Of a stretch of DNA of 51,627 nucleotides, positions 751 through 41,977 are shown piece by piece. Origin of the DNA: Candidatus Nomurabacteria bacterium (GTDB taxonomy: Bacteria > Patescibacteriota > Minisyncoccia > Phycocordibacterales > UBA9973); the NCBI GenBank assembly GCA_026395955.1, contig JAPLXR010000009.1:1-51627 (forward strand), read 5' to 3'. The position numbers were made by a program, and so were the translations under genes. Each line of letters starts with the position of its first letter. Within the stretch, counting starts at the first letter, position 1. Below the pieces are notes generated by a model. It was not told where the DNA came from. It was given only the letters and a program-made list of their open reading frames with translations, and searched no databases.

Positions 751-786
751 AAAAAGTCCGGATAAAAATCCGGACTTTTTTATTTT
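751..786. terminator. Bidirectional intrinsic terminator between the REC gene (+) and topA (-)
   Basis: agtccgga-taaaaa-tccggact forms an 8-bp GC-containing stem at 755-776. It is flanked by an A-run upstream and a T-run downstream. Confidence 0.7.
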
Positions 787-22171: not shown

Positions 22172-22672
22172 ATGAAAAATAATAAATCTATTATTGAAAG
22201 TTTTTTAGAAGAACTTTTGAAGTCCAACATAAGATATGGTGGTGTAGCTGTAAATTTGTTAGGTTTACCTGTCTTTAATAAAAAATATTCTAAGACCTCC
22301 TTTGCAAATGCTATTTCAAGAATGAAGAAAAATAATTTTATTGAAAATGATGGCGAGTTTTTGAAAATTACTCCTAAGGGCAAAGAATACATAAAAAGAA
22401 AACAAGATAGTTTACAAGTATTCTCTAATACATTCAAAAAAGATTCACCAAAGAACTTAATAGTAATGTTTGATATACCAGAAGGTAAAAAGGCTGAAAG
22501 GGAATGGTTCAGATTTCACTTAAAGAAATTTAACTATGTAATGGTTCAGAGAAGTGTCTGGGTTGGTCCTTCACCATTACCAAAGGACTTTATGAATTAT
22601 GTGGAATCAATAAAGCTCAAAGATTGTATTAAGACTTTTAAACTCGCAAAAGCTTACAAAATCGATAAGTAA
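22172..22672 (+). CDS. PaaX-like regulator: N-terminal winged helix plus a C-terminal Cas2/VapD-like ferredoxin-fold domain
   Basis: The C-terminal LIVMFDIPEGKKAEREWFRFHLKKFNYVMVQRSVWVGP matches the (V/I)xFDIPE..R...R..L...GF..LQ.SVW pattern of the PaaX C-terminal/Cas2-fold domains. The N-terminal ~75 aa look like a wHTH. Confidence 0.5.
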   Translation: MKNNKSIIESFLEELLKSNIRYGGVAVNLLGLPVFNKKYSKTSFANAISRMKKNNFIENDGEFLKITPKGKEYIKRKQDSLQVFSNTFKKDSPKNLIVMFDIPEGKKAEREWFRFHLKKFNYVMVQRSVWVGPSPLPKDFMNYVESIKLKDCIKTFKLAKAYKIDK

Positions 22673-25406: not shown

Positions 25407-28400
25407 ATGAAATTTTTGCGTCCAAAAAAAGATGAAAAGACTAAGCATTTTTTTATGCAAGATATCGTTCGAAGAACGATTGATAATCATCCTATTTTGA
25501 AAGAAAATTTACCCGTTATAGAAATTCATTTTGATAGAGCTAAAGAATTATTTCTTGAACACCGTCGAGCTATTTTTGGTATTTTAACTTTAGTTGTATC
25601 TCTTTCAATCTTGAGTGCTTTCTCTATGGGTCATGCTTCAGTTACAAATTTTTATCCTACAAGCTGTCTTGGTGGTTGGGAACATCCAGAGAATGCACAA
25701 GGTGAACCAGACTTACCAAGCGGTTCATCTCCAGAGAGTTTTAGTGTTTCAAATTCTGCGCGACTAGATAAATCCAGTGGCTCTATTTTCTGTGGAGGTT
25801 TCAAGGGAGAAGTTTTAGATAATACACAGCCGACAAATTTTCATTTATCTTTTTCTTGGTCTGTGGATGATGGTTCAGTAAATCATAACGAAGTAAAACC
25901 ATTTGAAAATGTTTCCAATACTGATCAACAAAATACAAATCCTGTAGATAATACAAATTCTAATTCTACAGATACAAATAATTCTACTGCAACAGATGTA
26001 AATAATAATTCAAACTTAGATTTAATTGAAGTTCCAAGTAATTCTGATACACAAAATAATAGTGCTGATAATTCTGTGAATATTCCATCATCAGATCCTG
26101 CACCAGCTCCTGTAGAATCTGCACCTGCACCAGAACCCGCTCCTTCTCAAAACGATAATCCTGTTTCAGCATTTTTATATAATTTATTTTCTACTCCTGC
26201 CTTCGCAGAAGATTTTAGTAATAGTTCATCTACACCAGAATTAATTTCAGAACCTGTTGTTACAGATACATCTACAGATTCAAATGCTTCTACTTCTAGT
26301 GAAAATAAAAATACAGGAGATGAATTATTAAATCAAGAATTAAATTCAGATAAAAACCTATCTGATGCATTTGCCGAAGTAGAATACACTCTCGATGGTA
26401 CAGATTGGAAAACTTTAGGAACTATAAGTCGTAGTCAGTGGCAAAATGCGTCTTTTAATATTCCACTCGATGCTTGGGCAAATCTGGACAATCTTCAAGT
26501 TTCAATAAAAACATTACCGACTTATGATACTCCTGCTGTTATATATTTAGACGCTATGAAAATGAGTGTCGAATATCAAGACATAAAAGAAATCCTTAAT
26601 CGTCCGACGGTTGAATTAAAAGATTCAAGTAATGTTATTTCAAGTCCACAACAAGATTTTAATTCTAGTGAAAATGTTAACTTTACTATAAATACTCCAA
26701 ACTTGGATATTAATGATATTAAAGATTTAGTAAATAATGGTACTGCTGAAATTGTCGATGATAAAGCTGGAGTTCTCACAGATACTCCTGTTATAGATAA
26801 CACAACTTCTAATAATACTATTAATTCTATAAAAGATATTGTAAAACCCACTGCTGATTCTTTAAATAAAGCATTACCAGATGACTTAAATTCAGCTCAA
26901 GTTATAGTTTTACCTGATATACCTAAAACGACGACAGATACAAAAATAATAACAGAAGAAAAACCAGTTTCATTGCTGGATTTTTTCGAAACAAAAAAAG
27001 CTCTAGCTGACGCTCCAGATATTACAGCAAAAGTTTTAGATTTAAATGGAGATGATACAGATATTAGTGCTCGAGTTGTGCCTGTAACTATAAATGGTAT
27101 CAATAAACAGCAAGTTCAAATAATAAAAGGTAGGGAATTCAAGCCTGGAAAATATACACTGAAAGTTTCAGTTAATACACCACAAGCGATAATCGTTTCA
27201 CAACAAGATTTTACTTGGGGTGTTTTGTCTATTAACACAAATAAAAGTATTTTTGAGGTAGGTGATGATGCTTATTTACAAATGGGAGTATTGAATGATG
27301 GTGGACATACTATCTGTGATGCTGATTTAAATTTGTCTATTACTAGTCCTAGCGGAATAGTAAATAATTTTTCAACTAGTGATGATTCTATAATTCGTGA
27401 AAAACAATGTGGACCAGACAATGTTATTTCTGTACCAGACTATTACGCACATTTCAATATTCCTAGTGAAATTGGTACTTATACAATGAGACTTACAGCA
27501 AATACTATAAATGGCACAAAAAATATTTCTGATACTTTTAATGTTGTGCATAATTCTAATTTTGTAGTTGAACGTGTGGGACCATCCCGTATATATCCAT
27601 ACGATACTCCGTACCCAATGAATATAAAAATTACTGCAAAAAATAATTGGCAGGGAATTGTCAGTGAATATGTACCAGAAAGTTTTGATATTTCACAAGA
27701 TACTAATGGTGTGCAATATATTTCTGTAAATATAGTAGAAGACCCTAGTGATCCTACTATACAAGTAAAGAAAATTTCTTGGAATGTATCACTTGTAGCA
27801 AATCAAGAAACAGACCTCGGATATATTTTCAATGCTCCACCTGTGAGTCCAGAATTTTATATACTTGGAAAAATTCAATTAAATAATAATGGAAATCTTT
27901 CTTTTGAAGAAGCTCGTAATTGGCAGATAGCATCTGATGCTGCATGTAACGCAACTGTCACAGGAACATGGGGAGGAACAGATACTGCTACTTTTACGTC
28001 TTGTACTGGTGCAGCGAGTACTGGTACAGGAACTGGTGCTAGACCAGGATCAGCTGATACTTTAACTATTAACTCTGGTGTAGTTGTTACACTCGCTACA
28101 ACCGCGTCTCTAACTTCTTTAACTCTTGCGACTTCAACTGTTGCAAACGGATTAGTAATAAATGATGGAAATACCTTAACTGTTTCAGGTGCTCTAACTT
28201 TTAATACGTCTGTTACAAACTCGTCTGTAACTCTCGGTTCGAGTACTGGTGCTGGTAACTTGACTGTAGGATCTATTTCTATGGCTGCACCAACTACTGC
28301 TGTTGCTTCTATTGAAAAAATAAACTGTTCGGCGAGTGGAACTGGAACTTTAACTGTTTCAGGAACTGGAACTATCGCTATTACTGGTAGTAGTACCGCA

Positions 28401-31400
28401 TCAAACACTGGTTCAGCAAGTATTGATATGACTGCTGGTGCTTGTAATGTTATTACGGGAACTGGTACAAATACTTTGACCGCAGGTACAACAGGAGCGA
28501 CACCAAATGCATTTATAAGAATGGGAACTGGAACAATTACTTTTAATAGTAGTTTAACTTTTGCTGGAGCAACAGCCAGTAAAGATGCTCTTATTACTGC
28601 AAACGGTACAACTATTTCATTGAACAATGCATCTTTGCCAGCAGTTGGAACTTCTGGTTCATATACTATTACAGGAAATACAAACTTAATTTCGGCTGGA
28701 ACAAGTTCTGTTGCTTATGCAACAGCTGTATCAACATGGGGAACATTAACAGTGAACAGTGGAACTTTGACATTGAGTGCGGCGGCAGAAACATTTACTG
28801 GCGCAGTAAACATTGCCGGAGGAACATTATCACTCGGAAACACCTTTACAGCTTCGAGCACGACTTCGGTGACGGGAACTATTTCAAACTTAAACAGTGC
28901 TACAGTAAAAACTTTTACAGGATTAGTTACAGTAAACTCTGGAGGATCAATTAACTTAACTACTGCTACTGTGCCTGTTGTGGTTATTGGTGCTGGTGTT
29001 ACCACATCGTCTGGTGCTAGTACTGTAAACTTTGGAACGGGAGCTACGACTTTTTCTAACGCATCACCGACTTTTACTGGGCCTGTCGCTGTAACAATTG
29101 GTGCTGTCACCTTAGCATCAGGTCAAACATTAACTAACAATATGAGTGCGACTCTTACATTGGCATCACTTACATTTGGTTCTGCTCCTGCTTCTGCTAT
29201 AACTGCTACACTTTCAACTGGATCAACGACTACTGTAACTGGAGCTATTACCTATGCCGTAGGAGCAAGTGCTCAGAGTGAAAGTATTTTATTAAACGGT
29301 ACCGCAAACTTAAACGCAGGATCTATTTCTATGCCAGCGATGACTGCAGCAGGTTCTGCTTTGATAACTTGTGTATCGTCTTGTAGTGGAACTTTAACAA
29401 CGACTGGTGCTGTGACTGTGACAGGGAATAGTACAGCTGCACAAACCGGAGTTTCAACTATTGCTATGAGTACAGGTAATATGAGTATTGGAGGATTGCT
29501 TACTATTGCTGGTGGAACTGTGACTGCTGCTACTGTATCTCAAAGTACAGGTAATATGACATTATCTGCTGGTATTACTTTTTCTGGAACAGCAGCAAAC
29601 ACTAGATTGACGACAACAGGAGCAAATACGATTTCTTTTGCGGGTAACTGGACAAATACATCAGCCCCAACTCTTACTATAAATTCTGGTACAACTTTAA
29701 AAACAACTGGAACTGCGACATTGTGTGTGACAAATGGTATGACATGGCCAGGAAAATTGTGGGTATCTGCTGGTACAACTTCACTCGCATTAGCTGAAAC
29801 AATTACTGGTACAACACAAGTTACAAGTACACTTAACAATACTAACGGTAACACGGCTAAAATTTTCGGTGGTCTTATTACTGTAAACTCTGGAGGAACT
29901 TTTGATATGACTGTAGTTACAGCACCTTCTGTCGAATTTCGTGGAGGTATTCAGGTAGATAGTGGTGCAGTAAAATTTGCAACAACAGGAACAACAACAT
30001 TTACCACAGCAAACCAATCAATTTCTGGTGGAGGAAGTATCGGTATTTCATTTGGTGTAGCTACTGTTAACGCAAACATTTTGTTAACAAATAGTTATAC
30101 TGGAGGTACTGTTACTTTTAACTCAACTTTAAACTTGACAGCTCCTACTTCCGCTAGTGATGGTTTAAGTTTATCTACTGGTACTACTACTGTAGTCACT
30201 ACAATTATTACACTTGGAGCGAATGCTGCTGCTGGTGCTTTTACTGAACTTGTTACTTTAAATGGAACGGCAGTTTTTACCGCTGGAACTACAACTTTAT
30301 CTGCACCGACATCTACAACAGCAGGAGCAACAGAAGGAATTATCGCGGCTTCTGGAGCATCAGGTAATGTGAGTTTAGGTGCTACTACTTTGACTTGTAC
30401 TGGTGTCGGAACACAGTTTTGTGGAATAGATTTATCTCTAGGAACAAATGCACTTTCTGTTTCTACTCTTTCTGCTTCTGGTAGTAATACTGATGTTGCA
30501 AAAGTTTTAATGAGTTCCGGAACATTTACTTCAAGTGGACTTATTACTATTACTGGTGCCTCTACTTTAAATCCTTCAGCTGTTTTAACTACAACCACAG
30601 GTAATGTAAATATAAATGCCGGTCTCACTTTTGCTGGAACAGTTGCCAATACTCAATGGAATACTGGTGCAGAAATTATAAACTTTGTAGGAACGATGTC
30701 TGGTGCTGGAGTTATTAATATAAACTCTGGAGCAACTTTTAATACTAGTGGTGTTGCATCTTTGAGTTCTCCTATAACTTTACCGAATTTAAATATATTG
30801 TCAGGAACAACAACAATGGGAGCAATATTGATTACGGTATCTGGTGCTACAAATGTTACAGGTGCTATGGTAAATGCAAGTAGTGCTCTAGCTAAAACTT
30901 TTACAGGATTAGTGACCGTTAACAACGGAGGATCAATTAACTTAACAACAGCTACAGTACCTGCTGTTAGTTTTGCCACAGGTGTCACGACTGTTACTGG
31001 TGCTGGTACTGTAAACTTTGGAACAGGCGCTACTACATTTACAGCTAGTTCTTCTTTTAATGGTCCTGTCGGAATAACAATTGGTGCTACTACTATTAAC
31101 TCTGGAGTTGTTGTTACAAATAACAACACAGCGACAGTTACAATGAGTTCTTTGACCTTAGCTTCTGCTACTTCGGGAACAACTGGCATGTCACTTACTA
31201 CAGGATCTACTACAACAATTACTGGAGCACTTACTTATACTGCCAATGCTGGTGTAGGACTCAATGAAGTTATTACAATGAATGGTACTGCAAACTTAAA
31301 CGCTGGTTCTGTTGTAATGCCTGCTGGAAGTAATACTGGAAACTCATCTGTAACTTGTGCTGCTGGATCTGGAACATTTACTGTTACTGGTGCTTTAGGT

Positions 31401-34322
31401 GTTACAGCAGGAACTACTGCCGGTGCTTCAACCCTCGCAATGGATACTTGCACACTTGCTGCAAATGGACTTGTTACAATTACAGGAGGTACTGTAGGTG
31501 TGGCTAGTATTTCTGCTTCAACTGGAACTTTAGACTTCAATGCTGGTATTACTTTTGCAGTAACATTGGCTCAGGCTCGTATTACAACTTCAGGTGCGGC
31601 AAACATTTATATAACAGGAACAGTTGGTGGTGTGGGAATACTTTCTGGTATTAACTCAGCTACAACAATATACACTCAAGGAGTAGTAAATATAAATGCC
31701 GCTTTAACATTTCCTAATATGACTGTCTCAACAGGAACGACAACAATTTCTCAAGCAACAACTATTTCAAATGGTTTAACTGTCTCAAGTGGAGCAATTT
31801 TACAATTCACAGGAGTTGCCTTTACTTCAAGTAGTACTACGACAGTTAATGGAGCTATAAACTGTACTGTTGCTGCAACTTGTACTGGTACGAAAACTTT
31901 TACAGGTGCAGTTACAGTGAATAACGGGGGAAGTTTTAATCTTAATACTCCTGCACCATCAGTCTTTCCTACTTTAGTTTTTGGTAGTGATATTACTGTA
32001 AATACAGGTGGAGATTTAAATACAGGTATTGCAGGTACCACAAATACTTTTACAGGAAACTTAACCTTATCAGGAGGAGGCACGATGACTTTTAATGGAA
32101 CTGTTGCAAATGCTACAACAATTAACTCAGGAGTATTAGTGACAAATAGTAATACAAATACAGTAACATTTGGAGTTTTGACTTTAGCTTCTGGATCTAC
32201 AGGTCTGTCACTTTCTACTGGATCAACAACGACAGTTTCAGGATTGCTTTCAGCGTCAGCTAATGCTACAGCTACAAATACAAATATAGCAATGAATGGA
32301 ACTGCGAATCTAAATGCTGGAACATTTACAATTACTCCACCTACTAGTACTGGAAATGTTGGTGTTACTTGTAATGCTAGTTCTGGAACATTTACAGTTA
32401 CTGGGGTGACAACGATATCAGGAAATGCGACTTCAACAGGAACGGCAAATATGCTTATGGATAGTTGTAATTTTTCTGCTGGTGGTGCTGTAAACATGGG
32501 TGGAGGAGCAAATGCTGTCGGAGGTATCGATACTCTTTCTTTTAGTACTGGTACACTTACATTTTTAACTGGTATTACTTTTGCAGGAACAAGTCAGGCT
32601 AGAAATAAACTTACTACTACAGGTGCAGGTATTATAAATCTCACTGGTACAATGACAGGAGGTGGAACAATTTCAATTGATTCAACTACTACATTTAATA
32701 CTACAGGAACAACTGGTTTTTCGTCTCCCATTACACTTCCAAATTTAAATGTTCTTTCTGGTACAACTACAATGAATGGTGTAACTATTACTGTAAATGG
32801 TGCAACAAATATTTCAGGAACACTCGCAACAGGAAGTATTACCGGTACAAAAACATTTACCGGGTTAGTCGATGTAAATCCTTCTGCAAGTTTTGATTTT
32901 ACTGCTTTTGCTACGGCGACAAGTTTTGGTAGTGGTATTAATATGGATGGAACAACATTCAATACTGGTACAGGTACAACTACTTTTTCTGCATCACAAA
33001 GCCTAAGTGGCTCTACTGCTATGATTTTCGGTGGAGCAGTAACGATAAGTAGTGGATTTACTTTAACAAATAGTAATACTAGTACAGTTGACTTTAACAG
33101 TAGTATTACAGGAGGTAATGGATCTTCTAACTTTGCAACAGATATCAACTCAACAACGAACTTCGGAGGCGCAACAATGGCAACAGGAACACTTACTCCA
33201 AGCACAAGTGTAAATACTATTGCTTATGATGGAGGAACACAGACAATAGAAGCCCCGATAACAAATCCGTATTACAATTTAAATATTACAGCTGCTGGAG
33301 TAAAAAGTTTAGCCGCGATTACTACAGTAACTAATACGATAAATATTTCAGCAGGAACTCTCGATACAACAAGTGCTTCACATTATAATATAAACACTGG
33401 GAATATGACTATAGGTGGTAGTGGAACATTACTCGGACAAGCTGCAACTATTACACTCACTGGTAATTGGTCAAACGCTGGTGTATTTACAGCAGGAACT
33501 TCAACTGTAATTATGAATGGTGGTACAACTGCATCTGTAACAGGAACGACAACATTTAATAATCTAACCATTACACACACAAGCGCAAAAGAAGTTGATT
33601 TCGATTCAACTGGTATTACACACGTGACAGGAATATTTACTGTAACAGGGCATTCTGGTAATTTGATAACTTTACGTTCAGATGCAACTCCGACAAAATG
33701 GCAAATACATCCGACAGGTACTGCGAGTGCTGACTATGTAGACGTAATGGACGGAGGATGTCAAAGCGGATCTACCAATATCTCACCAACTAATTTTACA
33801 AATAGTGGAAACAATGACGGTTGTTGGGTTCCAACTTTCGTTTCTTTTACTTATTCTAATTCTGATTCTAGTATTGGTTTTGGAACGTTATCTTCTCTGG
33901 GTGTGTGTTATGCTACAAATGACACATTGGGTTCTGCTACAGATGTCGTTGCTCATAGTTTAAATATGGTAACAAATGCTGTTTCAGGATATACACTTAC
34001 ATATTTTGGAAATACTTTAACTTCTGGGTTAAATACAATTAGCCCAGCTATTAATATCAATACTGGTGGAACATCTGGAACATCTCAATTTGCAATTTCA
34101 GGTACAATGACGAGTTCTGGTACTGGTGCTATGGTATCAGGCTATAATCATGTTACTCCACAATGGTCTTTTGTAGATGGTGCAACTACAACAATTGCAT
34201 CTTCTTCGGGTCCTGCAACTTCTGATACTGTCGATATGCACTATGAAGCAAATATTTCTCCTATAACTCCAGCAGGGAATTATTCTACAAATATTACTTA
34301 TATAGTTACAGGAAATTTTTAA
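25407..34322 (+). CDS. Giant (2971 aa) N-terminally membrane-anchored surface protein. It has low-complexity stalks, Ig-like domains, about 5-6 Thr/Gly/Ala-rich repeats of ~330 aa (beta-helix-like) and a C-terminal subunit-like domain.
   Basis: TM segment IFGILTLVVSLSILSAF near aa 55-75. N/T/D/S-rich and PAPAPVESAPAPEPAP linkers. Repeated ...KTFTG(L/A)VTVN(S/N)GGS(I/F)NL... and ...(L/M)NGTANLNAG... units. A near-C-terminal SGNNDGCW motif. The last ~160 aa are homologous to the product of 34436-35506. Confidence 0.85.
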   Translation: MKFLRPKKDEKTKHFFMQDIVRRTIDNHPILKENLPVIEIHFDRAKELFLEHRRAIFGILTLVVSLSILSAFSMGHASVTNFYPTSCLGGWEHPENAQGEPDLPSGSSPESFSVSNSARLDKSSGSIFCGGFKGEVLDNTQPTNFHLSFSWSVDDGSVNHNEVKPFENVSNTDQQNTNPVDNTNSNSTDTNNSTATDVNNNSNLDLIEVPSNSDTQNNSADNSVNIPSSDPAPAPVESAPAPEPAPSQNDNPVSAFLYNLFSTPAFAEDFSNSSSTPELISEPVVTDTSTDSNASTSSENKNTGDELLNQELNSDKNLSDAFAEVEYTLDGTDWKTLGTISRSQWQNASFNIPLDAWANLDNLQVSIKTLPTYDTPAVIYLDAMKMSVEYQDIKEILNRPTVELKDSSNVISSPQQDFNSSENVNFTINTPNLDINDIKDLVNNGTAEIVDDKAGVLTDTPVIDNTTSNNTINSIKDIVKPTADSLNKALPDDLNSAQVIVLPDIPKTTTDTKIITEEKPVSLLDFFETKKALADAPDITAKVLDLNGDDTDISARVVPVTINGINKQQVQIIKGREFKPGKYTLKVSVNTPQAIIVSQQDFTWGVLSINTNKSIFEVGDDAYLQMGVLNDGGHTICDADLNLSITSPSGIVNNFSTSDDSIIREKQCGPDNVISVPDYYAHFNIPSEIGTYTMRLTANTINGTKNISDTFNVVHNSNFVVERVGPSRIYPYDTPYPMNIKITAKNNWQGIVSEYVPESFDISQDTNGVQYISVNIVEDPSDPTIQVKKISWNVSLVANQETDLGYIFNAPPVSPEFYILGKIQLNNNGNLSFEEARNWQIASDAACNATVTGTWGGTDTATFTSCTGAASTGTGTGARPGSADTLTINSGVVVTLATTASLTSLTLATSTVANGLVINDGNTLTVSGALTFNTSVTNSSVTLGSSTGAGNLTVGSISMAAPTTAVASIEKINCSASGTGTLTVSGTGTIAITGSSTASNTGSASIDMTAGACNVITGTGTNTLTAGTTGATPNAFIRMGTGTITFNSSLTFAGATASKDALITANGTTISLNNASLPAVGTSGSYTITGNTNLISAGTSSVAYATAVSTWGTLTVNSGTLTLSAAAETFTGAVNIAGGTLSLGNTFTASSTTSVTGTISNLNSATVKTFTGLVTVNSGGSINLTTATVPVVVIGAGVTTSSGASTVNFGTGATTFSNASPTFTGPVAVTIGAVTLASGQTLTNNMSATLTLASLTFGSAPASAITATLSTGSTTTVTGAITYAVGASAQSESILLNGTANLNAGSISMPAMTAAGSALITCVSSCSGTLTTTGAVTVTGNSTAAQTGVSTIAMSTGNMSIGGLLTIAGGTVTAATVSQSTGNMTLSAGITFSGTAANTRLTTTGANTISFAGNWTNTSAPTLTINSGTTLKTTGTATLCVTNGMTWPGKLWVSAGTTSLALAETITGTTQVTSTLNNTNGNTAKIFGGLITVNSGGTFDMTVVTAPSVEFRGGIQVDSGAVKFATTGTTTFTTANQSISGGGSIGISFGVATVNANILLTNSYTGGTVTFNSTLNLTAPTSASDGLSLSTGTTTVVTTIITLGANAAAGAFTELVTLNGTAVFTAGTTTLSAPTSTTAGATEGIIAASGASGNVSLGATTLTCTGVGTQFCGIDLSLGTNALSVSTLSASGSNTDVAKVLMSSGTFTSSGLITITGASTLNPSAVLTTTTGNVNINAGLTFAGTVANTQWNTGAEIINFVGTMSGAGVININSGATFNTSGVASLSSPITLPNLNILSGTTTMGAILITVSGATNVTGAMVNASSALAKTFTGLVTVNNGGSINLTTATVPAVSFATGVTTVTGAGTVNFGTGATTFTASSSFNGPVGITIGATTINSGVVVTNNNTATVTMSSLTLASATSGTTGMSLTTGSTTTITGALTYTANAGVGLNEVITMNGTANLNAGSVVMPAGSNTGNSSVTCAAGSGTFTVTGALGVTAGTTAGASTLAMDTCTLAANGLVTITGGTVGVASISASTGTLDFNAGITFAVTLAQARITTSGAANIYITGTVGGVGILSGINSATTIYTQGVVNINAALTFPNMTVSTGTTTISQATTISNGLTVSSGAILQFTGVAFTSSSTTTVNGAINCTVAATCTGTKTFTGAVTVNNGGSFNLNTPAPSVFPTLVFGSDITVNTGGDLNTGIAGTTNTFTGNLTLSGGGTMTFNGTVANATTINSGVLVTNSNTNTVTFGVLTLASGSTGLSLSTGSTTTVSGLLSASANATATNTNIAMNGTANLNAGTFTITPPTSTGNVGVTCNASSGTFTVTGVTTISGNATSTGTANMLMDSCNFSAGGAVNMGGGANAVGGIDTLSFSTGTLTFLTGITFAGTSQARNKLTTTGAGIINLTGTMTGGGTISIDSTTTFNTTGTTGFSSPITLPNLNVLSGTTTMNGVTITVNGATNISGTLATGSITGTKTFTGLVDVNPSASFDFTAFATATSFGSGINMDGTTFNTGTGTTTFSASQSLSGSTAMIFGGAVTISSGFTLTNSNTSTVDFNSSITGGNGSSNFATDINSTTNFGGATMATGTLTPSTSVNTIAYDGGTQTIEAPITNPYYNLNITAAGVKSLAAITTVTNTINISAGTLDTTSASHYNINTGNMTIGGSGTLLGQAATITLTGNWSNAGVFTAGTSTVIMNGGTTASVTGTTTFNNLTITHTSAKEVDFDSTGITHVTGIFTVTGHSGNLITLRSDATPTKWQIHPTGTASADYVDVMDGGCQSGSTNISPTNFTNSGNNDGCWVPTFVSFTYSNSDSSIGFGTLSSLGVCYATNDTLGSATDVVAHSLNMVTNAVSGYTLTYFGNTLTSGLNTISPAININTGGTSGTSQFAISGTMTSSGTGAMVSGYNHVTPQWSFVDGATTTIASSSGPATSDTVDMHYEANISPITPAGNYSTNITYIVTGNF
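27945..33560 (+). repeat. Tandem ~1-kb coding repeats (about 5-6 units) inside the 2971-aa gene
   Basis: The landmark NGTA(N/V)(L/F)(N/T)AG recurs near 29290, 30260, 31275 and 32290. The KTFTG landmark recurs near 28908, 29865, 30894, 31890 and 32850. DNA similarity between units is roughly three-quarters by eye (for example 28908-29100 versus 30894-31090). Confidence 0.75.
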
Positions 34323-34435: not shown

Positions 34436-35506
34436 ATGAAATTATTTAAATCAAAATTTGTGTCTGCATTCTTAATCCTCGCGGTTGTTTTTTTTAGTTC
34501 TGGTTTGTTTGTGAATCATGCATACGCTGCATCGATCACTACTTTTTCGGACACACTTTCAAATGAAAATGCAAGTGCTGTGTCAAACCATGACATCTCT
34601 TTCGTCACTCCTACTGGTGTTGCCAGTGGTCAAACAATCATTTTAACTTTCGACAACAGTACTTCTATTAATGCATCTCTCGACTTTAGTGATATAGATG
34701 TGCTCGACAACGGTACGAACGTCACACTCGCTGCGTCACCGACTGGAGCTACGTGGGGAGCAGTAAGAACTTCAGCTACTGTTATTACACTTACTAATGG
34801 TACAACTGCAGTCACTGCGGGACATACTATTCGTATCAAAATTGGAACAAACGCAACTAACCAATCTACTGGTGTTCGCCAAATAACAAACGGTCCTGCA
34901 GGTACTACTACGCTTGCAATCTCGGGAACTTTTACTGATACTGGTACACTCGCGATGGCTATCATTTCAAACGACGTAGTCACAGTAACTGCAACAGTAG
35001 CTCCGACTATTTCTTTCGCTCTATCTTCAAATGCTATTAGTTTTGGTACATTAACATCTGCTAATGGTAAATGGGCTGATTCATCTACAGGGCAAACAGC
35101 TATAGCAGGTAACCTTCCAACAGCTGCTCATACTATGACAGTTTCTACTAATGCTAGTTCGGGTTATGTTGTTTCAGAATTAGGTACAACACTCGCATCT
35201 GGCGCTAATACCATAGCAGCTGCTACTATTTCAGCAGATAGTGATGGTACTCCTAACTCTGCACAGTTTGCTACATCTTTTAGTACTAGTGGATCATCAA
35301 CTATTAATACTTCATATGCACGAAGTTCAAACAGTAGTTGGAGTTACGCAAACTCTGCTTCAGTGCCTGTAGTTATTGTAACTTCTCCTGCAGCACCAGT
35401 ATCTTCAGAAGTCATTACCGCATCTTATTTAGCAAATATTAGTGGTTCTACTCCAGCAGGATCTTATACTACTGGAGTTACTTACATAGCTACTGCAACA
35501 TTCTAA
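34436..35506 (+). CDS. Secreted 356-aa surface subunit. Its C-terminal half is homologous to the C-terminus of the giant protein (WxL-like or pilin-like, unassigned).
   Basis: Signal peptide MKLFKSKFVSAFLILAVVFFSSGLFVNHAYA. ISF..S...ISFGTL, TNASSGY, TLASGANTI, QFA and ANISGSTPAGSYTTGVTYIATATF align with the tail of the giant protein. Confidence 0.7.
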   Translation: MKLFKSKFVSAFLILAVVFFSSGLFVNHAYAASITTFSDTLSNENASAVSNHDISFVTPTGVASGQTIILTFDNSTSINASLDFSDIDVLDNGTNVTLAASPTGATWGAVRTSATVITLTNGTTAVTAGHTIRIKIGTNATNQSTGVRQITNGPAGTTTLAISGTFTDTGTLAMAIISNDVVTVTATVAPTISFALSSNAISFGTLTSANGKWADSSTGQTAIAGNLPTAAHTMTVSTNASSGYVVSELGTTLASGANTIAAATISADSDGTPNSAQFATSFSTSGSSTINTSYARSSNSSWSYANSASVPVVIVTSPAAPVSSEVITASYLANISGSTPAGSYTTGVTYIATATF

Positions 35507-35513
35507 AAAAAAT

Positions 35514-36560
35514 ATGAAATTTATAAAAATTTATTCAACAAAAAAAACACTTCTAATATTTTCTTTTGTGCTTGTAACTATTTTTTCTCCAATTCATAAA
35601 TCTTTCGCTCTCACTCTTACGCCTATTCGCCTTGAAATAAACGGTGATACAGGTCAAACTCTTTCAGAAGAAATGACCTTGATAAATGAGAGGGATACAG
35701 AAGAAACTTACTATTCTTCTTATGCAAACTTTGAAGCACAAGGGGAAAGTGGTAGTCCATCTTTCGTAGAAGCCAAAGACGATATCGGCACTTGGATGAG
35801 TGCAGTACCATCAATAGTTCTTCCTCCTAAAAGTTCTAAAATAGTTCAAGTTAAAATAGCTATACCATCTAATGCAGATGCTGGTGGACATTTCGGTGCA
35901 ATATTTTGGGGAACAACACCTCCTAATAATACTGGAACAAGTGTTTCCATCGGTGCAAAGACAGGTATGCTTGTACTCCTCCGTGTAAATGGAGATGTTG
36001 CTGAAAAAGGCGGAGTATTAGAATTTGCTACACAAAACAAACAAACATATTTTACTTCATTACCTATTTCTTTCTATTATCGTTTCCAAAACAATGGAGG
36101 TGACCGTATCAAGCCAACAGGAGATATCTTGATGAAAGATACGATAGGTCTTACTGGTGCAAAGATTTCTGCTAATCCTGTAGAAGGAAATATTTTACCA
36201 AATCAAGTTCGTAAATTTGAGACGGTTTGGCAAGGTAAAGATGGTCCTACACCACTCGACGATAAATCACAAGGAAACTTTTTCAATAAAGTAGGTTATG
36301 AATGGAGAAACTTTGCTTTTGGACGCTACAAAGCAGAGATGAATCTTTCTTATGGTACAAAGAATGAAGTAGCAACTGCAGTTTTTTCTTTCTGGGTATT
36401 TCCATGGCATTTAACTTTACTTAGTATTATTGCCTTATTAATTATTTTCTTCGGTGGTAAATTCTTGATAAAGAAATACAATCATTGGGTCATTTCACAA
36501 GCAGAAGCTATGATAAAGCGTGAAAATGAAATCCATGATAAACATAAAGCTCACAAATAA
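35514..36560 (+). CDS. Cell-surface Ig-fold protein with a C-terminal TM anchor, DUF916/DUF3324-like (CscA-like or chaperone-like)
   Basis: Signal peptide; LTLTPIRLEINGDTGQTLSEEMTLIN; PPKSSKIVQVKIAIPSNADAGGHFGAIFW; LPNQVRKFETVW...FGRYKAEMNLSY; a C-terminal TM helix LTLLSIIALLIIFFGG followed by a basic tail. Confidence 0.5.
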   Translation: MKFIKIYSTKKTLLIFSFVLVTIFSPIHKSFALTLTPIRLEINGDTGQTLSEEMTLINERDTEETYYSSYANFEAQGESGSPSFVEAKDDIGTWMSAVPSIVLPPKSSKIVQVKIAIPSNADAGGHFGAIFWGTTPPNNTGTSVSIGAKTGMLVLLRVNGDVAEKGGVLEFATQNKQTYFTSLPISFYYRFQNNGGDRIKPTGDILMKDTIGLTGAKISANPVEGNILPNQVRKFETVWQGKDGPTPLDDKSQGNFFNKVGYEWRNFAFGRYKAEMNLSYGTKNEVATAVFSFWVFPWHLTLLSIIALLIIFFGGKFLIKKYNHWVISQAEAMIKRENEIHDKHKAHK

Positions 36561-37506
36561 TTTTAATAAATTTATAAATAATAAAAACAAGAAAGCATTT
36601 TTCTTGTTTTTATTTATATTTTTATTTCCATTATTTTCTAATGCTAGTAGCTGTACTACTACACTCGGAGGTACTTGTAATTTAAATGATTCTATAACTA
36701 TTTCAGCTACGGTTGGTTCTAGTGGTGGTGGAGGAGGCGGAGGAGGCGGCGGTTCTGGCGGTGGCAGTTATAATCCATCTACGAGTGTTACTTTTTCTGG
36801 TTTTGCTTATCCATTATCTAGAGTTATCTTACTCCAAGATGGTCAAGAAATTTTAAATACAGTTGCTGGTCCTGATGCTCATTTTAGTATTACTGTTTCA
36901 AATTTAAATACAGGAGTATATACATTTTCAATTCTAGGTGAAGATTCTAATGGACAAAGATCTACACTTTTTACTATTCCTATTTCTACAACTTCTAACG
37001 TCGCTACAGATGTTTCAGGAATATTTATTGCCCCTACTATTGAGATAGATAAAGAGCAAGTCAAGCAAGGTGATACTATAACTGTTTTCGGAAAAACAGT
37101 TCCGAATGCTACTGTTATAATTCAAACCCATTCCGATAATTTAATTCAAGATACTGTTACTTCTGATAATTCTGGAGGATATATTTATAATCTAAATACT
37201 ACTCCTTTGGAATATGGTAACCATATTACAAAATCAAAATCTTCTTTAACGAATGTAAATACAAACCCGACCTCTTCTTTTAGTAAATTGCTTTCATTTA
37301 AAGTTGGTAGTGAAAATATAATGAAAAAAGATGCTTGTGGAAATATCGCTGATTTTAATAATGATTGTCATGTTAATTTAATAGATTTTTCTATAATGGC
37401 GTATTGGTATCATAGGACTGGAGTGCCAAAAGAAATTGATTTAAATGGAGATAGTTTTATAAATTTGGTTGATTTTAGTATATTAGCTTATCATTGGAAT
37501 GGTTAA
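36535..37506 (+). CDS. Secreted protein with a poly-Gly linker, two Ig-like domains and a C-terminal dockerin-like module
   Basis: Signal peptide ...KKAFFLFLFIFLFPLFSNA and SSGGGGGGGGGGSGGGS. The duplicated Ca-binding-type segments DFNNDCHVNLIDFSIMAYWY and DLNGDSFINLVDFSILAYHW form the dockerin pattern. The ORF opens at GTG 36520, and the ATG at 36535 is a plausible start. Confidence 0.6.
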   Translation: MINIKLTNNFNKFINNKNKKAFFLFLFIFLFPLFSNASSCTTTLGGTCNLNDSITISATVGSSGGGGGGGGGGSGGGSYNPSTSVTFSGFAYPLSRVILLQDGQEILNTVAGPDAHFSITVSNLNTGVYTFSILGEDSNGQRSTLFTIPISTTSNVATDVSGIFIAPTIEIDKEQVKQGDTITVFGKTVPNATVIIQTHSDNLIQDTVTSDNSGGYIYNLNTTPLEYGNHITKSKSSLTNVNTNPTSSFSKLLSFKVGSENIMKKDACGNIADFNNDCHVNLIDFSIMAYWYHRTGVPKEIDLNGDSFINLVDFSILAYHWNG

Positions 37507-38410
37507 AAATATTTTTAAAATTAAATATCTCTTAATGTTTGGATTATTGATATTTTTTATAATACCAAATTTTTCTTTTGCTTCTGAAATTGATTTCAAA
37601 ACAAATACTCCCAATTTAGGTATAGGTGATGAATTTACAGTTCAAGTTATTCTAAATACTCAAGGTCAAAGTATGAATGCAATATCCGGAGATATTAATT
37701 TCGATGATAGTTTTTTATCAGCTGAAAATGTTATTTTTGCTAATTCTATAGTTCCTGTTTGGATAGATTCACCTCATATTTCAGGGAATTCAATTGTTTT
37801 TTCCGGAATAATGCCGGGAGGGTATCAATCTACAGTAGATCCTGTAACACAAAATAGTGTCCCTGGAGTTATTTTTAATATTAATTTTAAAGTTAAATCC
37901 GCTGGTCAAAATTTAATACAATTTAATGATATTCATGTTTATAAAAACGATGGATTAGGAACTGAAGATATTGTTTCTATTAATCCATTTATTTTAAATT
38001 TAAATGATGTTGGTAGTAATTATGTTGTAAATAATGTGGATATTATTCCACCAGAAAATTTTACACTTACGATATTTAATGATAAAAATATTTATGATGG
38101 TAAAAATGTATTAATTTTTAGTACAAATGATAAACAAAGTGGTATTGATCATTATGAAATAAAAGAAGGCAAATATGATTGGATTCGTAGTGAAAGTCCT
38201 TATTTATTACTTGATCAAAATTTATCTGGTGAAATTGACGTAAAAGCCATAGATCTAGCCGGGAATTATACTATCAGTAAAATAAATAAATCAAAGAATT
38301 ATTTAGATATTATATTATTGTTAATTATTGCAATTATTTTATTCATTTCGCTCTTGATTCATCGTAGTCATTTGCGGTATCATAAGAAGAGGATAAGAAA
38401 TGAAAAATAA
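37499..38410 (+). CDS. Membrane-anchored cohesin-like protein (303 aa)
   Basis: Signal peptide; NLGIGDEFTVQVILNTQGQSMNAISGDINFDDSFLSAENV...GVIFNINFKVKSAG (cohesin-type beta-sandwich pattern); C-terminal TM IILLLIIAIILFISLLI plus the basic tail HRSHLRYHKKRIR. The start overlaps the upstream stop. Confidence 0.55.
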   Translation: MVKNIFKIKYLLMFGLLIFFIIPNFSFASEIDFKTNTPNLGIGDEFTVQVILNTQGQSMNAISGDINFDDSFLSAENVIFANSIVPVWIDSPHISGNSIVFSGIMPGGYQSTVDPVTQNSVPGVIFNINFKVKSAGQNLIQFNDIHVYKNDGLGTEDIVSINPFILNLNDVGSNYVVNNVDIIPPENFTLTIFNDKNIYDGKNVLIFSTNDKQSGIDHYEIKEGKYDWIRSESPYLLLDQNLSGEIDVKAIDLAGNYTISKINKSKNYLDIILLLIIAIILFISLLIHRSHLRYHKKRIRNEK

Positions 38411-39719
38411 ATTATTTTTAATAATCATATTAATAGTAGCAGTTTTTTCTGTTGGGCAAAAAGCCCATGCAGCTTCTTTGTATTTAATTCCAGATTTGGG
38501 TACTTATAATATTGATGACACTGTTACTGTTGGTGTTTTTGTTTCTACAACAAATGATAAATCAATTAATGCTATTTCAGGAGAAGTTACTTTTCCTGAA
38601 GATAAATTGAATTTTGTAAATGTTTCTAAGGTTGGATCTATCGTAAATGTTTGGACTACAGAACCTTTTAAAGAAACTAATGATGTTCGTTTTGAAGGTA
38701 TTGTTTTAAATCCGGGATATAATGGGACAAAAGGAAAAATAGCTACAATTACGTTTAAAGCTAAAAATCCAGGTGTAGCTGATTTGGCCTTTATTTCTTC
38801 TTCTGTTTTAGCAAATGATGGGCTAGGAACGAATTTATTAGATAAAACAGGAATAGCAAAATTTACGATTAATAAAACCTTGCCTTCAATAAAGGCTAAT
38901 CCAGTTTTACCTAAACCAAAGAAAGATTCAGGTCTCGTTAATGCAACTTCTACTCCAATGTTTACAATAACTCCAGTACCGACAATGGTTGAAGTAGATT
39001 TACCATATAAACAATTTACTTTTACTATTAGTAATTTAGTTAAACCAATAGCTTCTTATAATATTGCTATAGATAGAGGTAATCCAATAATATGGAATGA
39101 TGATGGTACTGGTATTTATACGACTCCAGAATTAGAATCCGGAAATCATACTTTGGTTGTAGAAGCTGTTGATACTGATGGAAATAAATTAGTTAATAGT
39201 ATTGATTTTACTGTTTCAGCTTTAAAGAAGCCAATAATAAAAATGTCTAACCAAGCCTTGCTCGATGGTGACTTTTTAGTAATTTCCGGTACAGCTACAT
39301 CAAATCAAAATGTAGATATTTATATTAAATCTCAATTAGACAATAGTGATGATATTTATAATATATTATTAGGCAAGACTTCTTTTATACAAGCTGATTT
39401 TGAAAAAGTAGGTACTAGTCTAACTGATAAAAATGGTTTATTTACTTTTGTTTATGATAATAGAATTAAAAATGGTGTATATTCTGTTTATGTAATTTCT
39501 AGAACAGATAATAATATTGAAAGTAAGCCTAGTGATACTGTTTTAATTCATGTAGATAAAAATAGTTTCCAGAAAATTTTAACACTTATTTTTAGAGCAT
39601 TAGTATTTTTCTTGTTACCATTTATCGGTTTATTAACTTTACTTAAATTAATAATTTCTTTCTTTTCTAAAATATATACAATATACAAAAGACATAAAGA
39701 AAGTACAAAAATTGAATAA
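38400..39719 (+). CDS. Membrane-anchored cohesin-like protein with two Ig-like domains (439 aa)
   Basis: Signal peptide; NIDDTVTVGVFVSTTNDKSINAISGEVTFPEDKLNFVNV...GKIATITFKAKNPGVADL; C-terminal TM ALVFFLLPFIGLLTLLKLIISFF. The start overlaps the upstream stop. Confidence 0.55.
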   Translation: MKNKLFLIIILIVAVFSVGQKAHAASLYLIPDLGTYNIDDTVTVGVFVSTTNDKSINAISGEVTFPEDKLNFVNVSKVGSIVNVWTTEPFKETNDVRFEGIVLNPGYNGTKGKIATITFKAKNPGVADLAFISSSVLANDGLGTNLLDKTGIAKFTINKTLPSIKANPVLPKPKKDSGLVNATSTPMFTITPVPTMVEVDLPYKQFTFTISNLVKPIASYNIAIDRGNPIIWNDDGTGIYTTPELESGNHTLVVEAVDTDGNKLVNSIDFTVSALKKPIIKMSNQALLDGDFLVISGTATSNQNVDIYIKSQLDNSDDIYNILLGKTSFIQADFEKVGTSLTDKNGLFTFVYDNRIKNGVYSVYVISRTDNNIESKPSDTVLIHVDKNSFQKILTLIFRALVFFLLPFIGLLTLLKLIISFFSKIYTIYKRHKESTKIE

Positions 39720-39781: not shown

Positions 39782-40954
39782 ATGAATAAATTTCTGGAAC
39801 AATTCAATAAAAAAAGACTAATCTCATTAGTCCTTTTTTCTTTTTTAGTTATTTTAATAATTTTTTTTATTGGAGATATTTTTCCATCTAAATACAGTCA
39901 GGCTGATATTGATCTTAAGAAAAATATAATAGCTGAAAAGAAAGTAGTAGAAAAAAAGATAGCTGTACTAGATACCGTAGCTTATGATTTAAAATTAAAA
40001 CAATTAGCAAATTATCCATTACCAAAACCTATAGTTAACGCTACTTCTACTCCTATTAACAATTCAAAAGTTACTTCAGGTTCTAAAACAATTAAGCCAG
40101 TTGAAACAAAGCCTGTAACACCTCCTAAACCTCCTTTATGGCCCGTAAAAGCACCTTATCCTAAGGTAGGGGCACTTTTACCTTTTAATAGAATTATCGC
40201 TTATTATGGCAATTTTTACTCTACAAAAATGGGCGTGCTCGGTGAATATCCAGAAGCAGAAATGTTGTCAAAATTAGATGCTGAAGCCAAGAAATGGGAA
40301 ATAGCTGACCCTACAACCCCTGTAATAAAAGCAATTGATTATATAGCTATCACAGCACAAGGTAGTGCTGGTTCTGATAAAAAATATCGTTTCCGTATGC
40401 CTGATAGTCAAATAGATAAAGCTGTTGTTCTGGCAAAAAAAGTAAATGGTATTGTTATTCTAGATGTGCAAGTTGCATTGAGTACTCTACAAATAGAATT
40501 ACCATTACTTGAAAAATATTTAAAAATGCCAGAAGTACATCTCGCTATTGATCCAGAATTTTCTATGAAGACAGGGGATAAACCAGGAAGTGTTATTGGT
40601 ACTTTTGATGCTACTGATGTGAATTATGCTGCAGATTATTTAGCTAAATTAGTAAAAGATAATAATTTACCACCAAAGATTTTGATTGTGCATCGTTTTA
40701 CTGAACATATGGTAACAAATTATAAAAATATAAAAACACTACCAGAAGTTCAAATAGTTATGGATATGGATGGATGGGGAGGAATGGCAAAAAAGAAAAA
40801 TACATATAAATCTTTCGTGCAACAACAACCTATTCAATTTACTGGATTTAAATTGTTTTACAAAAATGATTTAAAACAAGAATTAAATAGAATGATGACT
40901 CCAAATGAAGTTTTAAAACTTCAACCACAACCTAGTTTTATACAATATCAATAA
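39782..40954 (+). CDS. N-terminally anchored exported hypothetical protein (390 aa)
   Basis: TM LISLVLFSFLVILIIFFIG and a Pro-rich linker KPVTPPKPPLWP. The globular domain carries HLAIDPEF and IVHRFTEHM motifs. I cannot assign a family. Confidence 0.45.
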   Translation: MNKFLEQFNKKRLISLVLFSFLVILIIFFIGDIFPSKYSQADIDLKKNIIAEKKVVEKKIAVLDTVAYDLKLKQLANYPLPKPIVNATSTPINNSKVTSGSKTIKPVETKPVTPPKPPLWPVKAPYPKVGALLPFNRIIAYYGNFYSTKMGVLGEYPEAEMLSKLDAEAKKWEIADPTTPVIKAIDYIAITAQGSAGSDKKYRFRMPDSQIDKAVVLAKKVNGIVILDVQVALSTLQIELPLLEKYLKMPEVHLAIDPEFSMKTGDKPGSVIGTFDATDVNYAADYLAKLVKDNNLPPKILIVHRFTEHMVTNYKNIKTLPEVQIVMDMDGWGGMAKKKNTYKSFVQQQPIQFTGFKLFYKNDLKQELNRMMTPNEVLKLQPQPSFIQYQ

Positions 40955-41003: not shown

Positions 41004-41420
41004 ATGCAAAATTCAACAACAAATATAAAAGTTTTCTTTTCAGTTATTGGTTTATTAATAGTCGGTTCTATTGCGGGTTTTATTATTCAATCAAAAATAA
41101 CTTCATCTTCTTCAGTTCCTGCTGGAAAATATGATACTTTTGCTCAATGTTTAAAAGACCAAGGCGCTACTTTTTATGGTGCTTTTTGGTGTCCTCATTG
41201 TAAAGCTCAAGAAGAATCACTTGGTATGACTCGTGAAAAACTCGAGAGCATAGGACTCTATGTAGAATGTTCATTACCAGATGCTTCAGGACAAACTCAA
41301 ATTTGTAAAGATAAAAAAATCGAAGGATATCCTACATGGGAATTCAAAGATGGATCTAGGGTAAACGAATCTCCACTTCAGGTTTTAGCAGATAAAACTT
41401 CTTGTATACTGCCCAAATAA
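41004..41420 (+). CDS. Membrane-anchored thioredoxin-like protein (CPHC active site; VKOR/DsbB-partner type)
   Basis: An N-terminal TM helix followed by ATFYGAFWCPHCKAQEE...YVECS...GYPTWEF, the pattern of the Trx-like domain associated with VKOR/Dsb systems. Confidence 0.7.
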   Translation: MQNSTTNIKVFFSVIGLLIVGSIAGFIIQSKITSSSSVPAGKYDTFAQCLKDQGATFYGAFWCPHCKAQEESLGMTREKLESIGLYVECSLPDASGQTQICKDKKIEGYPTWEFKDGSRVNESPLQVLADKTSCILPK

Positions 41421-41425
41421 ATAAT

Positions 41426-41977
41426 ATGAATCTAAATACAATTCATTATCTAAATGTTTTTCTAGGGATGGGTGCAATTTTATTACAAATTGTTTCTGTT
41501 GGTGCTTTGGGAATGTTGTTTTTTGGAAATAAAAAACATGCTTTCCTAGAATATATAGATAAACATTTTCTAATTTTAGGTTTTAGTATTTCTCTTTTTG
41601 CTACAGCATTTTCCCTTGTATATTCAGAGGCTATTGGATATGCTCCATGTCATTTATGCTGGTTGCAAAGAATATTTATTTATCCTTTAGTTTTAATGTT
41701 CGGAGTTGCTCTCTGGGATAAAGACAAAAAAGTTTTACGTTACGCACTTCCACTCATAGCTGTCGGTACTGCTATTTCTATCTATCATAATCTGCGTTAT
41801 TACTTTGGTGAAAATGGATTAACACCTTGTGATTCTAGTGGTGTGTCTTGTTACCAACAATTGGTTAGTGAATTTAATAATTATATTTCTATTCCAATGC
41901 TCGCACTTACTGGATTTTTCGCTTTGATAACTCTTTGTCTCGTTGTGCATTTCCGTCAAAAGCATATAGCTAAATAA
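41426..41977 (+). CDS. Disulfide bond formation protein DsbB/BdbC family
   Basis: APCHLCWLQRIFIYP is the CxxC plus QR signature. A second Cys pair lies in PCDSSGVSC, and there are multiple TM helices. The ORF opens at TTG 41402, but the ATG at 41426 is the more likely start. Confidence 0.75.
   Translation: MNLNTIHYLNVFLGMGAILLQIVSVGALGMLFFGNKKHAFLEYIDKHFLILGFSISLFATAFSLVYSEAIGYAPCHLCWLQRIFIYPLVLMFGVALWDKDKKVLRYALPLIAVGTAISIYHNLRYYFGENGLTPCDSSGVSCYQQLVSEFNNYISIPMLALTGFFALITLCLVVHFRQKHIAK

Follow-up and report, generated by a model that had tools for sequence, protein, structure and literature searches.

A cohesin-dockerin gene trio as the probable membrane anchor of a Pam-type pilus in Candidatus Nomurabacteria

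A stretch of 51,627 nucleotides (nt) from a Candidatus Nomurabacteria genome (contig JAPLXR010000009.1, assembly GCA_026395955.1; the whole stretch is called the window here) contains three overlapping genes that encode a secreted dockerin protein and two membrane-anchored cohesin proteins. We propose, with a probability of about 0.6, that this trio, which is non-cellulosomal, anchors a Pam-type donor-strand-exchange pilus of the same operon in the membrane and probably also terminates its chain. That the modules are true cohesins and a true dockerin is close to certain, and it is quite likely that these neighbouring modules bind each other. An earlier note on this DNA described a self-contained trio acting as a generic surface tether rather than as a cellulosome. 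The membrane tether agrees with what we find, as the dockerin protein is secreted, the two cohesin proteins are single-pass and there is no enzyme or carbohydrate-binding module (CBM) with them. "Self-contained" does not hold, as the dockerin gene overlaps a chaperone-like gene and genes for a Pam pilin and a giant protein precede it. With upstream genes of these three kinds (pilin and giant protein above the NF058581 cut-off), the trio resembles the part of a pilus operon that provides the anchor, and not a generic tether.

Candidate Phyla Radiation (CPR) bacteria, or Patescibacteria, account for a large share of bacterial diversity, most of it uncultured. They live attached to hosts, and their surface fibres are the likely means of this attachment.

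Dockerin and cohesin modules

The dockerin protein ends in two repeats, DFNNDCHVNLIDFSIMAYWY and DLNGDSFINLVDFSILAYHWNG. D or N occupies loop positions 1, 3, 5, 9 and 12 of each repeat (D1 N3 D5 N9 D12), as in the two-repeat calcium-ligand pattern of dockerins, and this is the sole double EF-loop pattern in the six frames of the 51.6-kb window. The Pfam scans that the earlier note had suggested as a check gave matches below the cut-off for the dockerin (Dockerin_1, PF00404, 21.5 bits, E=2.8e-4) and for cohesin 1 in the 303-amino-acid (aa) protein (Cohesin, PF00963, 20.1 bits, E=7.8e-4, aa 42-151), and no match for the 439-aa protein that carries cohesin 2. Dockerin_1 is matched by all 20 aligned homologues of the dockerin protein (best E=2.4e-9). 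A profile of the C-terminal 62 residues, compared with the Protein Data Bank (PDB), has 2y3n_B as its top match (E=2.6e-7) with both repeats aligned, and each of the best 12 PDB matches is a dockerin module or a cellulosomal enzyme that bears a dockerin. The two-repeat dockerin proposed for the end of this protein is therefore confirmed by a profile match to solved dockerins. A profile of the whole protein finds only dockerins in the PDB, with no RbmA-like match, and PDB searches with single sequences returned only noise and matches to poly-Gly linkers. In the family alignment D-F-S-I is invariant in both repeats and the repeats are equally conserved.

One cysteine lies just upstream of the first dockerin loop and another within it, at position 6 in the window and at position 4 in some homologues. 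The two are present together or absent together across the homologues, which suggests a disulfide stapling the first calcium loop. A connection with SEML1_0315, an essential "dockerin-domain" protein in Southlakia epibionticum, was considered and rejected because size and layout differ; SEML1_0315 has 927 aa and its gene adjoins a tRNA gene (PMC10633639).

The next two genes begin with cohesins, as had been claimed. An AlphaFold2 model of the 303-aa protein, built on an alignment of 34 homologues, has a mean predicted local distance difference test score (pLDDT) of 93.5 and consists of nine strands (aa 29-169), a second beta domain (aa ~190-262) and a C-terminal helix. The nine strands form the beta-sandwich (jelly-roll) of about 140 aa typical of cohesins. 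A Foldseek search of the PDB with this model returned cohesins for all of the best 50 matches (target TM-score up to 0.78). The top match is 2w1n, the cohesin and FN3 double module of Clostridium perfringens GH84C (E=1.6e-9), and the list includes the non-cellulosomal Archaeoglobus fulgidus cohesin and the anchoring cohesins OlpA and OlpC. At the sequence level the identity with characterised cohesins is low (8-20%). The family profile of cohesin 1 matches the ScaB cohesins of Ruminococcus flavefaciens by sequence (E=0.004), and 5 of the 34 homologues match Pfam Cohesin at E<=1e-3. Because the Pfam gathering score is missed, membership rests on the fold and on profile-profile evidence. Cohesin 2 (aa 14-161) aligns to the cohesin 1 family profile with an hhalign probability of 99.6% (E=1.2e-24) and to cohesin 1 itself in BLASTP with 37% identity (E=2e-14).

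Both cohesin paralogue families conserve N60-A, S83, W88, P92, F101-x-G103, G108 and N150-D-G-x-G-T (cohesin 1 numbering), and their common motifs are N-A-x-S-G, S-x(4)-W-x(3)-P, F-x-G and N-D-G-L-G-T. These residues sit on strands 3, 5 and 6 and just after strand 8, and their side chains would point outward. In known cohesins the dockerin-binding face is the 8-3-6-5 sheet.

Each cohesin protein carries one cohesin and is a single-pass protein with a C-terminal hydrophobic helix followed by a basic tail; topology analysis thus bears out the membrane anchor described in the earlier note. The anchor is confined to the cohesin proteins, as the dockerin protein has a signal peptide and no anchor. 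Immunoglobulin (Ig)-like domains had been reported for the 439-aa protein and are indeed present there; the 303-aa protein also has an Ig/FN3-like domain (aa about 180-262). No glycoside hydrolase (GH) or CBM domain was found in any window open reading frame (ORF) scanned with Pfam, in line with the earlier note. With no such domain in the window, one cohesin per protein and only Ig domains beside the dockerin, the trio does not qualify as a cellulosome.

The operon and its relatives

The known Pam pilus belongs to Ca. Mycosynbacter amalyticus (Saccharimonadia) and consists of the pilins PamA, PamB and PamE, the tip PamT, the chaperones PamC and PamD and the terminator PamR (bioRxiv 10.64898/2026.03.03.709456). 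In a Pam pilin one linker strand connects an N-terminal beta-sandwich to a C-domain of truncated-Ig type, which takes up the linker strand of the following subunit; PamT has the acceptor domain only (bioRxiv 10.64898/2026.03.03.709456). A helix at the C-terminus keeps the PapD-like PamC and PamD in the membrane, and PamR is built from an N-terminal strand, a pair of FnIII domains and, at its C-terminus, a transmembrane (TM) helix (bioRxiv 10.64898/2026.03.03.709456).

The 356-aa protein of the window has the build of a Pam pilin. It matches the NCBIfam model NF058581 (CPR_Pam_pilin_C) at 57.2 bits (cut-off 55), and 23 of 31 homologues match this model (best E=2.4e-45) and the PamT model. The AlphaFold2 model (pLDDT 86.8) has two beta domains, and the linker region between them has a pLDDT of 59 in the monomer. 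Conservation is 0.61 in the linker (donor) strand, VVTVTATV (aa 181-188), and 0.68 in the last strand, higher than in the two domains (0.45 and 0.48); the same two strands are the most conserved parts of Pam pilins (bioRxiv 10.64898/2026.03.03.709456). The C-terminal truncated-Ig domain and the conserved linker strand thus place the protein among the Pam pilins, and strand exchange itself is predicted. Neither a WxL nor a Pam structure is among the Foldseek matches of this model, and no Pfam WxL domain was found in the 356-aa pilin family.

The giant secreted protein upstream of the pilin matches the same model at 61.4 bits (cut-off 55, E=1e-16) in its last 207 aa, the part scanned. Its C-terminal domain is 35% identical to that of the pilin (E=4e-18). 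Where the pilin has a V-x-V-T-A-T-V strand before this domain the giant protein has SGNNDGCW, so it is acceptor-only, like a tip subunit.

Between the pilin and the trio lies the gene of a 348-aa membrane-anchored protein, by its sequence a candidate pilus chaperone of the PamC/D or the ElrE/WxLIP type. Pfam WxLIP_PGBD (DUF916) is matched by 23 of 36 and 18 of 37 of its homologues (best E=2.9e-7), and the sole meaningful PDB match of the two family profiles is EfmWxLIP1 (E=0.04 and 0.0011). The NCBIfam models for Pam chaperones do not match the protein. A profile search for named chaperone relatives gave, among the matches listed, unnamed CPR proteins only, and an exhaustive search showed the chaperone family to be very large (17,351 clusters). 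No LPxTG protein was found at the locus.

The dockerin protein consists of a signal peptide, a short amphipathic beta-strand, 15 Gly/Ser residues, two Ig domains (Pfam Big_6, 30.2 bits, above cut-off) and the dockerin. The earlier note recognised the dockerin but overlooked the N-terminal strand and the poly-Gly linker. Of 24 short-form homologues, 19 have a motif [VIL]x[VI][ST]AxV no more than 25 residues from the poly-Gly; the background rate of the motif is 5e-4 per residue. The strand resembles the pilin linker locus by locus, for example NDQVTISATV against DDQVTITATV, and in the window SITISATV against VVTVTATV. In one related locus (L004) the dockerin protein has a pilin-like N-domain (29% identity, E=7e-9) that ends in the same strand; after the strand the dockerin protein continues with poly-Gly, Ig and dockerin and the pilin with the acceptor domain. 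A lone amphipathic strand with a poly-Gly linker cannot fold by itself. Because the donor-like strand is present and an acceptor domain is absent, the dockerin protein would be donor-only. Compared with published descriptions it looks like the terminator PamR with the membrane helix exchanged for a dockerin. The strand and two Ig domains are present and the TM helix is absent, which makes the protein a variant of PamR and not a plain member. In some homologues (L002, L027, L031, L032, L036, L038, L046 and others) a Cys-rich module, C-G-[DN]-G-x(5)-E-x-C-D-G...C...C.F.TS.C, is found between the N-terminal strand and the poly-Gly linker.

The trio is widespread. Relatives at about 50% identity number more than 1,600 for the dockerin protein; the cohesin protein has 328, and nearly all named relatives of both are Patescibacteria. 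A scan of one genome per species confirmed at least 577 related stretches, and in the best 80 of these at least 577 loci ORFs were called and scored with the family profiles. Among loci with 1 kb or more of flank, the gene immediately after the dockerin gene, read in the same direction, belongs to the cohesin family in 77 of 77, and the gap between the two is mostly -38 to +60 nt. Two or more cohesin genes occur in about 65 of 67 loci (two with at least 2.6 kb of flank have no second one, and seven have three), and a single dockerin is present in all 84 loci examined. This conservation indicates that the ratio of one dockerin to two cohesins is a design and not an accident. The ratio given in the earlier note stands; the additional dockerins that it considered elsewhere in the genome are not needed to explain it.

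The gene directly upstream of the dockerin gene is chaperone-like in 37 of 68 loci, and the N-terminal head of the dockerin protein tracks the upstream genes. The chaperone gene is adjacent to 22 of 26 strand-only forms, to 11 of 12 Cys-rich forms and to just 3 of 27 long forms with FN3 domains. The long forms are found behind giant-protein genes and, in 13 cases, behind a gene for a 138-aa membrane protein. Long-form loci (L003, L018, L021, L049, L053, L057 and others) have no adjacent chaperone-like gene. Many of them encode instead the conserved ~138-aa protein, which has an N-terminal TM helix and the motif LPEGE.PT.ATV.DP..LK.Q.FF..A..GDKVLIY, together with a beta-lactamase-like protein and a giant repeat protein. 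These loci look like a second architecture around the same trio.

In the window the genes of the chaperone-like, dockerin and cohesin proteins are on one strand (Table 1). The start of the dockerin ORF overlaps the end of the chaperone-like ORF, the dockerin and cohesin 1 ORFs overlap by 8 nt and the two cohesin ORFs by 11 nt. These overlaps pack the four genes as one operon. A scan for promoters and terminators gave sites no commoner than in shuffled sequence. RNA evidence was sought, and the runs that hold the stretch proved to be DNA from freshwater metagenomes only.

Table 1. Positions of the trio, the pilus genes and other features in the window
Feature	Positions	Strand	Remarks
Dockerin-protein ORF	36520/36535-37506	+	328 aa from GTG 36520; 323 aa from ATG 36535 (gene-caller start)
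Strand SITISATV	36691-36714	+
Poly-Gly linker	36724-36768	+
Two Ig domains	~36787-37300	+
Cys pair	37330-37368		upstream of and within first dockerin loop
Dockerin	37351-37503	+	repeats 37351-37410 and 37438-37503
Cohesin protein 1 ORF	37499-38410	+	303 aa; begins with signal/anchor helix
Cohesin 1	~37583-38005	+
Ig/FN3-like domain	~38036-38284	+
TM helix of cohesin protein 1	38303-38359	+	followed by basic tail
Cohesin protein 2 ORF	38400-39719	+	439 aa; begins with signal peptide
Cohesin 2	~38472-38882	+
Ig-like domains	~39012-39215	+	positions of Big_13; the protein has another Ig-like domain besides
TM helix of cohesin protein 2	39576-39665	+	followed by basic tail
Giant secreted repeat protein, candidate tip adhesin	25407-34322	+	2971 aa
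Acceptor domain of giant protein	~33837-34319	+	last ~160 aa; Pam-pilin C-terminal type
Pam-type pilin	34436-35506	+	356 aa; signal peptide, N-terminal beta-sandwich
Pilin linker strand	34976-34999	+
Pilin C-terminal truncated-Ig domain	from ~35003	+
Membrane-anchored chaperone-like protein	35514-36560	+	348 aa; signal peptide, two beta-sandwich domains
TM helix of chaperone-like protein	36405-36458	+	followed by basic tail
Conserved islands	37495-37528; 37921-37953		shared with commoner relative
Membrane-anchored protein	39782-40954		390 aa
Thioredoxin-like protein	41004-41420
DsbB homologue	41402-41977
DNA topoisomerase I, two overlapping ORFs	780-3033	-	2200-3033: Toprim and first third of Topoisom_bac; 780-2312: remainder and zinc ribbons
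Pair of very large secreted proteins	3984-17935		855 aa and 3813 aa
Cas2-like/PaaX ORF	22172-22672		166 aa

The window is AT-rich (G+C 26-41%), and its nearest relatives are Patescibacteria (CPR) metagenome-assembled genomes labelled Candidatus Nomurabacteria. The identical stretch, with no differences, is present in contigs of three freshwater metagenome runs. A commoner relative occurs in two of these three runs and has only two islands in common with the window, one covering the end of the dockerin and the start of cohesin 1 and the other lying just before the NDGLGT motif. The 392 nt between the islands are of equal length in the relative and less than 80% identical. This seemingly "replaced" segment over cohesin 1 was considered as a variant of the window genome and rejected, as the relative is less than 80% identical; the two islands and the diverged segment of equal length instead indicate a related organism with the same operon in the same water.

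Several other genes of the window deserve mention. The 390-aa membrane-anchored protein that follows the trio has no family match, is found there only in the window and its closest relative (L001/L005) and is outside the conserved cassette. Just downstream of the surface operon are the genes of a thioredoxin-like protein and a DsbB homologue, the latter likewise downstream in the closest relative (L001). They would fit extracytoplasmic disulfide formation in cysteine-bearing surface proteins. The division of DNA topoisomerase I into two ORFs may reflect a frameshift, a mistake in the assembly or a gene that is truly split. The pair of very large secreted proteins carries GLUG motifs, M26-peptidase N-terminal-like regions, InlB B-repeats and a PG_binding_1 domain and is another giant surface protein locus. 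The 166-aa ORF has a Cas2-like/PaaX central domain (Pfam PaaX_M 1.9e-12, CRISPR_Cas2 4e-6); no CRISPR array was noticed beside it in passing, no search having been aimed at arrays.

Proposed anchoring mechanism and alternatives

The order of assembly that we infer for the pilus is as follows. All parts would be exported by Sec, and the membrane-bound chaperone would hold the acceptor domains of the pilins. The giant protein would begin the fibre as its tip, because it has an acceptor domain and no donor strand. The 356-aa pilins would then join by exchange of their linker strands. The dockerin protein would plug the last pilin and end growth, as proposed for PamR and ElrB. Its dockerin, with calcium, would bind the cohesins of both membrane proteins and so fasten the fibre to the membrane. 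This cohesin-dockerin tie would replace the TM helix (PamR) or the sortase link (ElrB) of the terminator.

Several observations weigh against this reading. The Pfam gathering cut-offs are missed by the dockerin (22.9, by 1.4 bits) and by cohesin 1 (24.1). The Foldseek matches of the pilin model are generic two-Ig adhesin and pilin folds (integrin, ClfA/SdrE, PapG, EbpB). The 348-aa protein is like WxLIP only remotely (E about 1e-3), and the likeness to PamR, PamC and PamD is drawn from their descriptions and not from direct sequence comparison. The counts of loci are phylogenetically non-independent. About 40% of the related loci have no adjacent chaperone or pilin gene and encode a longer dockerin protein with an FN3 head; judging by these Pam-less loci, the trio may have a role beyond, or different from, that of serving a neighbouring Pam operon. 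A pilus anchor does not by itself account for the second cohesin. Proteins of 303 aa and of 439-600 aa could present the two cohesins as sockets at different heights, or one dockerin could be gripped by both through its two equally conserved repeats.

A more far-reaching version is speculative and, in our estimate, rather doubtful. In it the dockerin, with its two equally invariant repeats, is clamped 1:1:1 by both cohesins as a releasable calcium-dependent anchor, and the DUF916/WxLIP kinship unites the CPR Pam pili with the WxL pili of Bacillota. If correct, the clamp would be a strong anchor that is in principle releasable, and Pam and WxL pili would be one old family of pili, belonging to bacteria without an outer membrane.

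The Pam-less loci also speak for an autonomous surface-display module, in which the Ig-dockerin protein is held as an envelope stalk or spacer (for example as S-layer or wall-zone support) mechanically unlinked to Pam. In 31 of 68 loci no chaperone or pilin gene adjoins the trio, and the trio is better conserved than all its surroundings. A stalk of this kind is nevertheless unlikely: the dockerin gene overlaps the chaperone-like gene in the window, the mature protein begins with a lone pilin-linker-like strand that is unable to fold alone, and the head type tracks the upstream genes. The low identity to characterised cohesins (8-20%) raises a different question, namely whether the cohesin-like domains bind another ligand (a host surface, a glycan or the pilin), with the dockerin as a calcium-stabilised end module or with another partner. 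The cohesin jelly-roll does resemble some CBMs. Such binding is improbable given that a cohesin gene adjoins the dockerin gene in every locus with sufficient flank, that the best 50 structural matches include no CBM and that the conserved residues fall on strands 3, 5, 6 and 8, the known dockerin-binding face.

The presence of two cohesins per visible dockerin could also point to a minimal cellulosome- or amylosome-like display, on which dockerin-bearing enzymes from elsewhere in the genome dock. Non-cellulosomal enzyme complexes do exist in C. perfringens (2w1n) and Ruminococcus bromii (Amy12 dockerin). We consider this very improbable, since the window has no GH, CBM or other enzyme domain, the dockerin protein of no homologue listed has a catalytic domain, each locus has its one dockerin (84/84) and the 1:2 ratio is conserved. 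The anchoring of a Pam-type pilus remains the reading that we prefer.

Comparison with known systems

Non-cellulosomal cohesin-dockerin pairs, the Pam pilus and the WxL pilus are known already, each pilus from one 2026 preprint. A cohesin-dockerin operon in CPR bacteria, or the use of this pair as a pilus anchor, was reported in none of the papers found by literature searches. The Pam preprint names Saccharimonadia and Microgenomatia, and no cohesin, dockerin or Paceibacteria (bioRxiv 10.64898/2026.03.03.709456).

The window system shares with the Pam pilus a pilin of N-domain, linker and truncated Ig, an acceptor-only candidate tip, a membrane-anchored candidate chaperone and a probable terminator with a strand and two Ig domains. 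It differs in the dockerin that stands in place of the TM helix of PamR and in the two extra membrane cohesin proteins. Its candidate tip is a 2971-aa giant, unlike the single-domain PamT, and its lineage is Paceibacteria-type, unlike the Pam hosts.

The Elr pilus of Enterococcus faecalis has the tip ElrA, the pilin ElrD, the chaperone ElrE and the LPxTG terminator ElrB (bioRxiv 10.64898/2026.10.17.759780). ElrE, a DUF916/DUF3324 membrane protein, is the donor-strand chaperone of this enterococcal WxL pilus, and the system is reported as confined to Bacillota (bioRxiv 10.64898/2026.10.17.759780); WxL clusters are described in PMC10599100. The window follows the logic of Elr, with a large acceptor-only candidate tip, a pilin that is both donor and acceptor, a candidate chaperone of two Ig domains anchored in the membrane, and a probable terminator that is donor-only and bears the anchor. 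The 348-aa family is remotely like DUF916/WxLIP proteins of the ElrE type. Unlike Elr, the locus has no detected Pfam WxL domain and no LPxTG protein, so that it does not belong to the WxL/Elr systems. The donor strand is an internal linker instead of the pilin N-terminus, and the anchor would be a cohesin-dockerin joint to the membrane instead of a sortase link to the wall.

The trio resembles the single-cohesin cellulosome anchors OlpA and OlpC (3ul4, 4dh2) and the type I/II dockerins of Clostridia and Ruminococcus in the nine-strand jelly-roll, the two-repeat dockerin and the pairing of a cell-bound cohesin with a secreted dockerin protein. Unlike cellulosomes it has no enzymes, CBM or multi-cohesin scaffoldin, and a TM helix takes the place of S-layer homology (SLH) domains or sortase. 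D-F-S-I is found in both repeats instead of the usual recognition pairs of cellulosomal dockerins, and the cargo is a structural Ig stalk. The non-cellulosomal pairs of C. perfringens GH84C (2w1n), A. fulgidus (2xdh) and the R. bromii amylosome (9qfa) are likewise used outside cellulose degradation. Those systems involve enzymes or toxins, whereas the pair of the window is found in a pilus operon, with a conserved layout of one dockerin gene followed by two cohesin genes.

The conserved trio would mark the fibre base in at least 577 stretches, and the upstream genes point to variable giant tip adhesins, which probably decide the host range. The modules are small and soluble and may serve as orthogonal parts for protein assembly. 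If the trio anchors the pilus as proposed, this would be the first structural use of a cohesin-dockerin pair outside enzyme and toxin complexes. Pili described so far are attached through a membrane subunit, through an usher or through a sortase link, and the cohesin-dockerin pair would then be a further mode of anchoring.

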